Assembly (NCBI GenBank): GCA_020054325.1
Contig: JAGVLG010000113.1
Span: forward strand, 443 to 64,442
Direction of reading: 5' to 3'
DNA from: Gammaproteobacteria bacterium
GTDB taxonomy: Bacteria > Pseudomonadota > Gammaproteobacteria > UBA6186 > Azoamicaceae
DNA length: 64,000 bases
Position numbers: made by a program. Below are positions 30,001 to 36,000 of the stretch, one piece after another; position 1 is the stretch's first letter; every line of letters starts with the position of its first letter.

Positions 30001-33000
30001 ACTTGGTTCATTATTATGCAGTGCAATTGTGCTAATTGTTATATCTGCACCCATCATTTTTAAAATTTCAATACACGCACTACGAGTTGGATTTATCCCA
30101 ATATTCGGCATGCAAAGATCTGCACCTGGCGTTATTGTAGCAGCAACTATAAAAAAGGCCGCAGCCGATAAATCTCCTGGAATAGTTATGCTTTTATCAT
30201 GGTGGGAGTTATTATATAAATAATCCAACATTAATTCGGTATGGTTACGTGTTGCAACTATTTCGTTAATCTGCGAGCGCCGTTGTGCATACAAATCTGC
30301 CAGTAATATTGCAGATTTAACCTGAGCGCTTGCTATTTTCAAGGTATAATTGATAGATTTTAATTTGGTCACAGGATTTATTATTAGCGGTGCAAAGTTT
30401 TCCTGGTGTGCGGCTATATCTGCCCCCATAAGCTGTAAAGGTTGTATTACCCGTCCCATTGGACGCTTGGTTAAAGAAGAATCTCCTGTCAATTTGGTAC
30501 TAAATTTTTGTGCACATAATACCCCAGTTAACAAGCGTAACGCAGTGCCAGAATTACCGAGATCTAGCAGTATCGATGGTGCCTGTAAACCATTTAGACC
30601 ATTACCGTAAATAACAATATCGTTCGCATTTACCTGCTCAGCTTTTATCCCCATAGACTCTATGGCATATAATGTTCGCAAACAGTCTAAACTTTGTAAC
30701 CAATTTTTAATGAGTATCGTTTTATTTTGTAAAGCTGCTAAAATAATTGCGCGGTGTGTAATAGACTTATCCGCAGGTATTGTGATGCTGCCGTTCAAAT
30801 TTTTCGAAGGCTTTATCAACAAATTCAATATAGTCATAATTCTCAATATCTGTTGACTTAAACAATTTAGCAGTATACCATAATAAACGTGGAATTATTA
30901 GGAGCGTAATATGAAAGCATTAAAAAAAGCTGCTAAAGCGATAGATAGAGCCAGTGTCAGAAATGATATTTCTGAGCAACGCAAGGCAAGCCAAGGCATA
31001 GAAGCACAATTAAAAAGCAAACTTGCGGCACTACCTGTAGGAATACTTGCAACGAATTTTACGAGATTCTTAAACGAACATCCTACTACTACCTTATCAA
31101 CTGAAGAAAAAGACAGTAAAATTGCCCTGTTAAATACTTTAGAAGCAAAAAAGCAAGAATTATCTGCAATTTCTGAAACCGTGCGTAAGTTAGCATGGTG
31201 TATTCATGAAAGGGATAAAGAACAGCCAGATGCATTTGCAAGCCTACCTCGTACGGACAATCATGTTACAGACTGTAACAATTGGTTAGCACAAATCAGA
31301 AATAAGGTTGATACTGAATTTAATCCCAAATATGCCGTATTAGAAAAATTAGTAACTGACTTGAGCACTGAACTAACTACTTTGGAAGCTACAACGGCAG
31401 CTGCTGCAGCACCAACTGTAACAGCACCTCTGATTTTTTCCGAAGCAGCAATTACAGCTAATCCAGGCGTAGCAGATACTGCAACTGCTCAACCTGGTGA
31501 TTTTGACGATGTTGTAGTAATTATAGGAAGAGAAGCACCAAAACCATAGGATGATATATGTCGCTTAAACTCGCAAGGATCGCTGGTTTAATATTGTTGC
31601 TCATAGTACAACCTGCTATGAGCAACGATAACCCTTTATTTCAAAACCTACCTTTATTAAACTACCAAGCAATTACCGCTAGCGATTTTGAACCAGCAAT
31701 GGATACTGTATTACAGCAATTTGATACGCGACTGGCAAGCATCGTGATTTCACCACCATCTTGGAATAATTCAGTGGTACCCCTACAAGAAGCAACCAAC
31801 GCTGTAGTTAGGATTTGGAATGTTATTAGCCATTTAAACGCTGTTAATGGCACCCCTGAAATTAAAACTACATATCAAAAAATATTACCTAAAGTAACTG
31901 GTTTTTATTCGAAAATTGTATATAACCGCGACTTATATAAAGCTTACAAGGCTATTGCGACAGGGGCAGAATTTACCAAATTAAATACCGAACAACAAGC
32001 ACATATTAATAATATGCTAAGAGATTTTCGGCTTACCGGAGCAGAGTTAGATCCAGAATCAGGTAATCGTTTGAAACAAATTAACACCAGTATACAAGAA
32101 CTAGGTCACAAATTTGCAGAAAACCTCAGTGCTGCTACAAATGCTTGGAGCTACCAAATTCCGGTTGATAAAGCAAACATACTTGATGGAGTACCAGATA
32201 CCTTTAGGAATGCTGCAGCAGCCAAAGCAAAGACATTGAATAAAACTGGTTGGGTGTTGAATTTGGATGATTCTAGTGTTGCAACAATATTATCATATGC
32301 TAAAGACCGCGAATTACGCCAAACTTTTTATAAGGCGTATAATACCCTTGCTTCTGATCAAGCTGAAAATAGCAACGATCGAAAATGGGACAATGCAAGC
32401 ATAATAAATCAAATACTAACATTACGCCAAGAAGTAGCAACTATACTTGGGTATAAAAGTTACGCAGATTATGCCCTGGCCACTAAGGGTTCACAAACTA
32501 TTGATGATGTTCTGAAATTTCTAAATGATTTAACAACACAAGCAAAACCAAAAGCACAACAAGAGCTACAACTTATATCTGAGTATGCTAAGAACGTAGA
32601 TAGGATAGATAAACTTGAGGCTTGGGATCTAGCTTATTATTCGCAAAAATATAAAGAAAAGAAGTTTGATATTCGTACAGCCGAGTTTAAGAAATTCTTT
32701 CCAAAAAACACCGTATATCAAGGCTTATTTACGCTCACAAACCTGTTATTCAATTTAGAGTTTAAAGAAGAAAAAAGTGCCAGTACCTGGAACAATGCAG
32801 TACAAGTTTTTTCGGTAACAGATCAAAATAAACAACTTAGAGGTTATTTTTATTTAGATATATTTGCTAGAGATCAAAAAACGCCAGGCACCTGGACCGG
32901 ATTTTATACTTCGAGATTCAAGTTTAGTGATGGCGCAATTCAATTACCAGTTGCTTTTATTAATGCCAGCTTCTCTGGCGGTAGCGATGGATTATTGGAA

Positions 33001-36000
33001 TATCATGATGTTGAAAGTTTGTTTTTTGAATTTGGTCACATGTTGGAGCATGTACTTACTATGAGCGACTATCCAAACTTATCTGGTTTAAACGCCAATA
33101 CATTCGAAAGTAGTAAAGTAATTAGCAACTTTATGGCAGATTGGTTTTGGATATATGATGTAATGCTGGACATCTCCCAAAATGTTAATAATGGTCAAGA
33201 TTTGCCCCGGGATGATTTTAATAAGATGTATGCACTACGCAATTATAATGCCGCACTAGCTTTACTTGGACAAATAGAGTTAGCCCTATTTGATTTTGGA
33301 TTACACAGTAATTCAGCTCAAGATTTAAGCAAGACCCCATTAGCAATTTTAACCGAGATAAGACAAAGTACCGCGATAACCCCACATTATGAATATGAAC
33401 GTCTAGCAAATCATTTTTTATATTCGTTTTCTACAGAGTATGCCGCAAATTATTATGTAGAACAATGGTCACAGGTTTTGGCAGCAGATATATTCGCATC
33501 ATTTCGAGAACGAAGTTTATTTGATCCACAAATTGGCAAAAAGTTTTTGAAGACTTTTCTTGAAAAGACTGGAGAGGAAAGCACCTTAGATCTTTTCATA
33601 AACTTTAAAGGAAGGGCTCCAAGCACAATGCCCTATTTAACACAAGCTGGAATCTTAAGCAATTAATCAAGCCATTTTAGCACGCAACGCTGCTACTGCA
33701 GGTTGCTTTTTATTGTGCAATTCTTTTGCTATCTTGAATAATTCAGAAACAATCCTGTCCTCTAAATAGATCTGCATATCAGAATTTTTAACTGCATTAT
33801 GTATACCAACATGCGCGATTGCCGGTAAATCTATAACATAACCATCCATGGTAATTACTGGTTGCTGCAAAAATTGCTTGCTGTTCGGAGCGTAAAAACC
33901 TTCGAAATCTAGCAGATCCTTTCCAAGATACAAATGAACTACTAAATCTTTTAGAAAATGATTTGGCAGTAATTCGTTTTCTAAAATTTGCTGTTTAGGG
34001 TTAAGTGGGTTAGCATGAGTTTTCGAAGTGCTAAACCAGTTTATTAAGCTAATGGCCTCGAAAGTAAAACAAGTTTCTTTAGCATCTTCAACATATAACA
34101 CTCGGGCTGGAATAATAATTGCCATCAAACTTATAGGACACTTAATACAGCTATACACTGCCGCAAGCTCTGGCATGGACTTTATAACTTGATCAATTTG
34201 AACTGCAGCATCATAATTACCAGCATGCGCAGCCATTACATAATAATGCTTTGCAAGAGCAGCTAACTGCAAATCTGTCGGATGCAATGCTGCTAATTTT
34301 TCATAGGTTTTAGCAATTTTAACTTGAATTTCGTCAGAGTATGATACTTTATCGCATGCAGCAAGATAATATTCTATTGCTAAACCGTACGAATTTTGTG
34401 CCTCACATAAATCACCAATCCTGATTAATTCCGCAGGTATATCAAGTAACCCTTTTGCCTTAAATTTATGCAGAAAATCCCAGCACGGCTCTTCCGGGCG
34501 ATCCTCAAATGGTATTTGCTCAAAAAAATTAATTAACTGATCTATTTTGAAAAATGCGCTCTTATTATAGCTCCTAGATACTGTCTCAAGGCTTCGCTGC
34601 ACTTGAGTCGGGCTTAGACGCATAGCAACTGCATCTTTTGAAATCGATTCAATTAGAGCATCAAATTCGGTGGTATCAACTAGATAACCCAACAACTGTG
34701 CTTCATGCTTAGCAACAAATTTAATTTGAGATAAATTAGAATCTTCAGGACTCCACATTAATCGAATATTATCATAGACAATACAAAATTCCATGACTGC
34801 ATTATCGCTATCAAAATTTAAATCCCCTGCAGCAGCCTTAGCAAAATATGCAGCAAAATGTTCTGTTAAAGCTCGCTTAAGATAACTAACCCGTTCTTGA
34901 CTCAAGAATTCAAAATTTATAAAACCTAAAGCTTCGTTCAAGAAATTGACATTAAATGCAAAGAGTTGCTTAAGGATAGGTAAACCTTCAGGCGTCAATA
35001 TCCTCGCAATAATTCTTCCCTGGATTAGAGCACCTACATCACTTAAATATTGCTCCCAAGCTGAAATGTCTCGCATTGCAAGCAAAAAGCCAACAAATTC
35101 TTCAATATTATTGTTTATTTCCGAATTTAAATATGGAGAGCTGACTATTGCTGCATTGTCTAGGAAATTATGCAATTCATATTTATGCCGTACTGCCAAT
35201 TTTTCACAAAGCTTGATAAAAACATGATAATTATCATATAAAATTTCTTTAAACCAATCAAATTCAATAAGGATCACTAATTTATTTGGTTCAGCATTCA
35301 TTACCAAATTATGGATGAAGCTCTGTTTTTCATCGAAACGTATTTTTTCTAATTCAACTAATCGTGCTACGGTGCGAATTATTGCTACGTCTTCAATATC
35401 TCTAATTGTATCCATAGCTTTATCAATAATATAAGATCGATCAACAATTAGTAGATTGGCTTTTCGCAACATTATAAGCAAATCAATATACTGCTCTTTA
35501 AACAAGATATCGATGACTGCTTCAATATTGCCAGAAGCATGCCAAGTATTTAACAAATAGGTAATTCGCGCTAAATCCAGACTAGGAGCGCTTAAACATT
35601 CTAATAATTCTTGAATTGCGTCAGAACTATCCGATGCTTCTGGGTTATGCATCGATATCGTCCGACTCTTCAGAAACTTCACCCTCTATTTCTTCAAGCC
35701 TTTCAATACCAACCAGATGCTCTTCTTCGGCTAAATTAATTAGGCGCACCCCTTGAGTATTCCGCCCCACAATCGAGATCTCATCAACTCTGGTACGCAC
35801 TAAGGTACCTTGATCGCTAATTAACATTAACTCATCGCCATCAAATACCTGTACTGCTCCCACAACAGTGCCATTACGCTCAGAAGTTTGGATCGCAATT
35901 ACACCTTGTCCAGCTCTACCAATGGTTGGGAATTCTTCGGTTAAGGTGCGTTTGCCATAACCATTCTTAGTAGCTAATAAAATTGCCCCATCTGCTTGTA

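Follow-up and report, generated by a model that had tools for sequence, protein, structure and literature searches.

The closest described relatives of the protein considered here are OpdA (OpdA/PrlC) of peptidase family M3A and its plant homologs of organelles and cytosol (4KA7, 4KA8, and 4PUT), followed by thimet oligopeptidase, neurolysin, and Dcp, which are active zinc enzymes of the cytosol or mitochondria. Pseudoproteases, which keep a peptidase fold under purifying selection while the catalytic residues are erased, are classified in MEROPS as "non-peptidase homologues." On the RNA side, intercistronic stem-loops, such as the REP (repetitive extragenic palindromic) elements in malEFG and the hairpins of the puf operon, make mRNA stability or translation differ between the cistrons of an operon. 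Here, we examined a 64,000-nucleotide (nt) stretch of DNA (hereafter, "the window") from contig JAGVLG010000113.1 of the gammaproteobacterial assembly GCA_020054325.1 (GTDB family Azoamicaceae), which contains a gene for a 702-amino-acid (aa) M3-like protein directly downstream of a 212-aa partner gene. Sequence comparison and structure prediction indicate that this protein is probably a Sec-exported, catalytically dead descendant of OpdA, that is, an M3A pseudopeptidase that would bind rather than cut, encoded by the second cistron of a two-gene unit and bearing an RNA hairpin within its coding region.

The M3-like protein is homologous to the M3A peptidases over its whole length, in both sequence and fold. 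It matched the Pfam families Peptidase_M3 (PF01432; 3e−98) and TOP_N (1e−20), the plant OpdA structures 4KA8 and 4PUT in the PDB (~1e−102), and the NCBIfam OpdA model (NF008159), to which residues 25–699 aligned at model positions 3–678 with a score of 529.8 bits, below the equivalog cut-off of 927 bits. The AlphaFold2 (AF2) model had a predicted local distance difference test score (pLDDT) of 92.5 and a predicted template modeling score (pTM) of 0.89, with low confidence for residues 1–22, and Foldseek superimposed it on 4PUT (Arabidopsis TOP2) with a template modeling (TM) score of 0.90, as a two-domain clam-shell fold of the M3 and not the M16 type. The protein shared ~35–40% amino acid identity with bacterial OpdA and 28–29% with the plant homologs; thimet oligopeptidase, neurolysin, and Dcp, which share the fold and the positions of the family motifs, are more distant (~22–26% identity). 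The end-to-end alignment with OpdA and Dcp, obtained with Pfam, NCBIfam, and PDB alike, bears out the colinearity described in the initial annotation of the window.

In contrast to OpdA, the window protein has lost the residues on which M3A catalysis depends. The HEXXH motif reads FEFGH at residues 490–494, the first position being His in 100% of the active-type sequences, and the codons found there (TTT GAA TTT GGT CAC) are exactly those reported previously. The Glu serving as the third zinc ligand (..AVE.PSQ..; canonical ..WDAVELPSQFMENW), present in all active-type sequences, is replaced by Lys, and the second invariant Glu of the same helix (ENW) is replaced by Ala. The Tyr loop has changed from FAGGYAAGYYSYKW to FSTEYAANYYVEQW (GGY...YSY versus TEY...YVE), and its invariant last Tyr, which presumably corresponds to Tyr-612, the transition-state Tyr of thimet oligopeptidase, has become Glu. 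In sum, the substitutions are H490F, E520K, E527A, and Y635E, the last three being additional to the change noticed initially. The mature protein contains no Cys, and the members of the clade described below contain 0–4, compared with a median of 5 in canonical OpdA. Because the catalytic features of M3A are missing, the protein, which belongs to M3A by descent and fold, is to be filed as a non-peptidase homologue.

The loss of the zinc ligands is shared by a clade of relatives (hereafter, "the pseudo clade"), of which nine members were collected first and nine more were added by a search seeded with the G001 protein, giving 18 distinct proteins. The initial annotation had proposed examining whether orthologs carry HEFGH. 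They do not: the closest database relatives read REFGH (P0002, 65% identical), NEFGQ (P0003, 61%), and NEFGR (P0006, 43%), and the other four species of the same GTDB genus read YAFGE (twice in G001), YLFGQ, AQFGE, and AQFGD. At the position of the first His, the 18 members have F, R, N, Y, S, T, or A but never His; 7 of them retain the catalytic Glu, 6 the third-ligand Glu, and 2 the second His (H494), and in 16 the Glu of ENW has become Gln. All three zinc ligands occur together in no member, a consistent replacement of the kind expected of a pseudoenzyme. Among 134 columns conserved in ≥95% of 117 active-type sequences, the first nine members of the pseudo clade keep only 79–98 each, compared with 126–130 in canonical proteins and in those intact proteins that have a signal peptide. 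The lost columns cluster at 442–447, 490–527, and 616–638, the regions that form the active site of M3 enzymes, and the acidic residues newly conserved in the clade are the single positions D538 and D614. The residues conserved specifically in the clade include N88, F116, Y199, Y305, K366, Y430, Y450, M495, Q527, D538, and A642.

These alignments also bear on whether the protein could still be a metallopeptidase with a shifted metal site, in which H494 and H498 would act together with E497 or E491 in the inverzincin-like order HMLEH, as the initial annotation had considered. The two His residues are spaced i, i+4 on one helix of the AF2 model (482–500), with E491 and E497 close by, and the HMLEH string recurs in P0002. 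However, H498 is not a new ligand, because it is invariant in all active OpdA proteins examined as well; within the clade it persists in 7 of the 18 members, and H494 in only the two mentioned above. The nearest relatives P0003 and P0006 have QMLDH and RMLEH, respectively, and others have EMLQ followed by H, Y, or R, so that HMLEH is confined to the window protein and P0002. Moreover, the clade has no newly conserved His/Cys/Asp/Glu triad, and the decay extends to the Tyr loop and to the helix of the third ligand. A substitute site of this kind, which is not conserved in the nearest orthologs and would sit in an M3 rather than an M16 fold, is therefore very improbable.

Missing catalytic residues and the long branches of the clade could in principle mean that a normal secreted OpdA is decaying into a pseudogene, has been inactivated in this strain only, or was misassembled. 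This is scarcely credible given that an independent metagenome contig from the Joint Genome Institute (JGI; locus L029), which covers aroA and the partner gene together with codons 1–562 of the M3-like gene, encodes an M3-like protein identical at 556 of 562 residues (99%), including FEFGH, in the same codons, and K520; the earlier judgment that FEFGH is no sequencing slip is thus upheld. At the DNA level, the M3-like gene is 98.5% identical overall between the two contigs and 100% identical across positions 32415–33114. The ORFs (open reading frames) of all 18 clade members are full length and without stops, and G001 has retained a duplicate of the gene elsewhere in its genome. The ratio of nonsynonymous to synonymous substitution rates (dN/dS) was 0.08–0.12 wherever dS was measurable, which indicates purifying selection: 0.09–0.10 for the paralog pair of G001 (dS ~1.2), 0.10–0.11 for the P0002/P0003 and G003/G004 pairs, and 0.08 for the window versus L029. 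Synonymous sites were saturated between the window and P0002 or P0003, giving no ratio, and closer pairs were used instead. Taken together, full length, low dN/dS, and a confident structural model are, as judged from these comparisons, the signature of a pseudoenzyme and not of a pseudogene. Between the two products proposed initially, a pseudopeptidase and a metalloprotease with a rearranged metal site, the absence of the first His from all clade members, the drift of the other ligands, the purifying selection, and the retained fold favor the former.

The N-terminus of the M3-like protein consists of a 22-residue extension directly ahead of the canonical OpdA start (M-S-NPLL). On hand reading, it has the n-, h-, and c-regions of a Sec signal peptide cleaved by signal peptidase I, namely K4 and R7 as basic residues, IAGLILLLIV as the hydrophobic core, and small residues at −3 and −1 in an A-M-S site followed by N. 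Its peak 10-residue hydropathy is 3.43, compared with ≤1.89 in 113 canonical OpdA sequences. The signal peptide recognized in the initial annotation is thus supported both by its Sec layout and by a hydropathy outside the canonical range. A hydrophobic N-terminal extension occurs in 18 of 18 members of the pseudo clade and in 0 of the 113 canonical sequences checked; among 236 OpdA-like proteins collected, the 16 with a hydrophobic N-terminus comprised 12 pseudo-clade members and the intact proteins P0004, P0005, P0007, and P0008. Because a search of the organism's own genome for type II secretion found no GspL, no GspK above the cut-off, and one secretin only, the periplasm would be the default destination of the M3-like protein; an onward release from there is conceivable but unsupported.

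The same intact proteins point to the origin of the pseudo clade. P0004, P0005, P0007, and P0008 all keep both HEFGH and the signal peptide, P0007 and P0008 being more distant. P0004 and P0005 resemble the pseudo clade in their signal peptide and their synteny between aroA and gyrA but, unlike it, keep HEFGH...E and 126–129 of the 134 conserved columns. In a maximum-likelihood tree built with the first nine members, the pseudo clade had a support of 98/97 and, together with its sister group P0004/P0005, formed a clade with a support of 100/100, apart from canonical OpdA. The intact paralogs with signal peptides are presumably real periplasmic peptidases, and, as far as tree and synteny can tell, the pseudo clade is descended from just such an OpdA paralog at the aroA/gyrA locus, one with a signal peptide and an intact catalytic site. 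The simplest history would be that OpdA was duplicated; that one copy acquired a signal peptide and came to lie between aroA and gyrA; that the zinc site was released from constraint a single time, in one descendant lineage; and that the former ligand positions then drifted freely while the rest of the clam-shell fold stayed under purifying selection. The extra OpdA copy is confined to the genus of the window within its GTDB family (41 species), and a search with the window protein found no related loci in named genomes. The organism's own genome has three M3 genes, including a canonical cytosolic OpdA on contig C99 (HEFGH, ..VELPSQFMENW), and because this copy is kept, the housekeeping role would be covered.

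Three further M3 genes were observed in the course of these comparisons. P0008 (locus L034, GCA_963422225.1) comes from a 1.68-Mb genome, in which it lies not at the aroA/gyrA locus but in a region rich in insertion sequences and toxin–antitoxin genes; its group was joined to the aroA/gyrA-locus group only weakly (80/78), and its signal peptide may share the origin of theirs or have arisen separately. The third M3 paralog of the organism's own genome (locus L002, 769–2985, contig C68) encodes 738 aa with an intact HEFGH, is 25% identical to the window protein, and ends in a Ser/Ala/Val-rich low-complexity tail; it may be another exported or translocated peptidase. G001 contains a second pseudopeptidase copy (locus L018, 3426–5525, contig C13), 79% identical to its syntenic copy (dN/dS 0.09), at an unrelated locus beside rimK-like genes, without the partner gene but with the hairpin in its signal-peptide codons.

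Table 1. Positions of the features discussed (coordinates of the window).
Feature	Position	Strand	Basis or remark
Promoter-like site, TTGACT-17 nt-TACCAT	30853–30881	+	Consensus scan only; before the two-gene unit
Partner gene, 212 aa	30911–31549	+	Helical bundle and disordered tail
Cistron junction, Shine-Dalgarno-like AGGA over the partner stop codon	31548–31557	+	Direct sequence reading
Probable OpdA-like M3A pseudopeptidase gene, 702 aa	31558–33666	+	Homology, AF2, Foldseek, zinc-ligand-less clade
Sec-type signal peptide, MSLKLARIAGLILLLIVQPAMS	31558–31623	+	Predicted cleavage after A-M-S
Hairpin, 17 base pairs, in signal-peptide codons	31592–31630	+	Folding, covariation, and recoding tests
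Degenerate HEXXH, F490-E491-F-G-H494	33025–33039	+	First zinc ligand gone; catalytic Glu and second His retained
K520 (AAA) at the third zinc ligand Glu position	33115–33117	+	Alignments; canonical WDAVELPSQ, window FESSKVISN
E635 (GAA) at the invariant Tyr of the GGYAAGYYSY loop	33460–33462	+	Alignments

The partner gene and the M3-like gene form a same-strand pair (Table 1) flanked by aroA (29572–30846, minus strand) on one side and by a 671-aa minus-strand ORF, and then gyrA, on the other. The partner stop codon TAG (31547–31549) is followed by an 8-nt gap before the ATG of the M3-like gene, as the initial annotation had stated, and this junction, with AGGA lying over the stop codon, suggests translational coupling. 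In orthologous loci, the two genes are likewise separated by 0–12 nt or overlap (L026, 5453–6001/6001; L024, 860/861; L005, 1278/1290). Wherever its surroundings could be read, the partner gene lies directly upstream of an M3 gene with a signal peptide, at nine loci in all (L029, L005, L024, L026, L020, L021, L030, and L032/L033). Because one of these, L026, encodes the intact peptidase P0005, the pairing would be older than the loss of catalysis. Meanwhile, the partner is absent under the same synteny from L025, from L022/L023/L046, and from L045, implying at least three losses, and because of these losses the M3-like protein does not appear to depend on it. The two-gene unit put forward initially therefore holds as a conserved pairing but not as an obligatory one.

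The M3-like protein and its helical partner might nevertheless be an obligate pair, the partner being either a cytoplasmic holdase or inhibitor of the precursor or one half of a two-part effector, with the pseudopeptidase functionless on its own. The tight junction, the adjacency at nine loci including that of an intact peptidase, and the co-occurrence of the hairpin (see below) fit such an arrangement. We regard it as unlikely: besides the losses in at least three sublineages, the partner is missing beside the G001 paralog at L018; it has no signal peptide, so that the mature proteins would reside in different compartments; and it diverges faster, being 83% identical between the window and L029, where the M3-like proteins are 99% identical.

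The partner protein itself belongs to a very small family. Searches of Pfam, NCBIfam, and PADLOC assigned it to no family and returned only generic coiled-coil or helical-bundle noise; Foldseek found no matching fold in the PDB (best E-value, 0.08), and a PDB sequence profile was likewise unspecific. A profile built from five members retrieved 9 proteins from 1.84 billion representatives, and "orphan," the term used for this gene initially, is accordingly too strong. Identity is 17–35% to the distant members. In an alignment of eight members, C122 is invariant within ..DC..WL.., and the core R..AW.IHERD...DCN.WL...FNPK is weakly conserved. AF2 predicted a helical bundle with pLDDT >90 over most of residues 1–166 and disorder (pLDDT <50) for residues 170–212. 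The tail (~167–212) is rich in Ala, Thr, and Pro and ends in an acidic-hydrophobic motif (GDFDDVVV..APKP) that is loosely kept across the family (GDFDDV.., EDFEKV.., EEFEHI..).

This tail raises the doubtful but conceivable alternative that the partner is a substrate of the Dot/Icm (type IVB) secretion system, with the acidic disordered tail as its translocation signal and a merely transcriptional link to the M3-like gene. The organism's own genome encodes DotH/IcmK (255 bits), and in several family members the motif lies 12–17 residues from the end of the disordered tail. On the other hand, the motif is short and varies among the family members, and the helical domain is unlike known effector folds.

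Comparison of the window with L029 also revealed mosaic divergence around the partner gene. Identity is ~94% in aroA, whereas in the center of the partner gene (window 31015–31314 versus L029 1800–2100) DNA identity falls to 63–81%, with a dS of 0.5–0.66 and a dN/dS of 0.14–0.19 for the partner. The divergence of the partner would be better explained by recombinational exchange of alleles than by simple positive selection, and the near-identity of the M3-like gene, which is complete over 800 nt, suggests a recent sweep or transfer.

The two-gene unit contains a second conserved element, an RNA hairpin inside the signal-peptide codons. Its arms, TATTGTTGCTCATAGTA and TGCTATGAGCAACGATA, enclose the loop CAACC and lie in the codons for LILLLIVQPAMSND, starting 35 nt and ending 73 nt into the second cistron. 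The native 50-nt fold has a free energy of −24.5 kcal/mol, compared with −10.3 ± 3.0 kcal/mol for 200 synonymous recodings drawn from the gene's own codon usage, and the same test gave p ≤ 0.05 in 10 of 14 orthologs, although the stem sequences differ. When nine orthologs were aligned with MAFFT, the stem region had no gaps; 90% of its cells are paired, with compensatory changes on both sides in 8 of the 17 stem pairs. None of 500 shuffles reached these values, and slid controls were far lower. The hairpin is present at all nine loci with the partner gene and absent from all six partner-less M3 loci with a signal peptide (L022, L023, L025, L034, L045, and L046; Fisher p = 2e−4, kinship of the loci being ignored), as well as from two canonical OpdA genes. 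The lone exception is the recent G001 paralog at L018, which has the hairpin without the partner; in P0005, the hairpin is weaker than in the others.

Rfam gave no match across positions 30700–33800, and a literature search on hairpins in signal-peptide codons found nothing specific. The element was considered as a genome-wide repeat, but it is unique in the genome. A scan had flagged it as an intrinsic terminator; this assignment was rejected because the downstream T-run is not kept in the orthologs (alignment A5), and only 5 of the 17 pairs are G-C. The hairpin resembles the intercistronic stem-loops of known operons in being stable, covarying, located just past a cistron boundary, and tied to the upstream cistron, but it differs in that it lies inside the downstream coding sequence and not in a spacer and has no Rfam family.

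We propose the following mechanism for the locus. The probable pseudopeptidase would fold like OpdA in the periplasm, unable to hold a catalytic zinc, and would act by binding, most likely as a receptor or scaffold that engages peptides or unfolded chains, or as a trap for them. Its gene would be the second cistron of a small operon; the first specifies a cytoplasmic protein restricted to the lineage, a helical bundle with an acidic disordered tail. The hairpin would act on the bicistronic mRNA, most likely by adjusting how much of each product is made relative to the other; protection (stabilization) of the 3′ end of a processed transcript containing only the partner, slower entry of ribosomes into the M3-like cistron, or a ribosome pause during emergence of the signal peptide could each be the means.

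Several points weigh against this interpretation. Since the partner has been lost repeatedly, any joint function of the two proteins is, judging from the loci compared, dispensable. Sec export, and with it the localization, is deduced from a signal peptide read by hand; the operon structure and the role of the hairpin are likewise deduced. Within its clade, the window protein is degraded least: it keeps E491, H494, and H498 and might have a weak residual affinity for metal. Finally, the residues that bind the substrate backbone in active M3 enzymes (the 442–447 strand and the Tyr loop) have drifted too, so that binding of the same peptides without cutting is not clearly supported.

We would go further only tentatively: the partner, the hairpin, and the exported dead OpdA could constitute one undescribed module of Dot/Icm-bearing uncultured gammaproteobacteria, in which the peptidase shell has taken on the role of a peptide receptor or decoy, either in the periplasm or after release, for example against host peptides, and the hairpin is a new element in signal-peptide codons controlling cistron ratio or export timing.

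Regarding the surroundings, the order rpsA-cmk-aroA, (partner), M3, gyrA is common to the related loci. The 671-aa ORF between the M3-like gene and gyrA (33667–35682, minus strand) has no Pfam or NCBIfam match, and its stop codon abuts that of the M3-like gene. Because gyrA directly follows the M3 gene at L004, L025, and L045, whereas L026 and L046 have other, unrelated insertions, the M3/gyrA junction seems to be especially prone to gene insertions that differ between lineages. Upstream of the pair, the TTGACTTA..CAATTTAGCAGTATACCATA stretch of the promoter-like site is also kept in L029; the regional count of such sites is not above the shuffled expectation.

No description of an exported M3A/OpdA pseudopeptidase clade was found in the searchable literature. 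Compared with other pseudoproteases, the clade of the window is distinguished by its export, its derivation from M3A/OpdA, its partner gene, and its coding-region hairpin. The finding overturns no principle, and the organisms are uncultured bacteria of the intracellular type. In practical terms, the name "oligopeptidase A" (given to P0002 by JGI) or a label of M3 metallopeptidase is very probably wrong for the pseudo clade. The hairpin is a small but well-supported case of selection on RNA structure within signal-peptide codons that is tied to operon architecture. Furthermore, a single syntenic locus would provide a natural series from a cytosolic enzyme through an exported enzyme to an exported dead enzyme, which is suited to asking how the clam-shell peptidase fold is re-used after catalysis has been lost.

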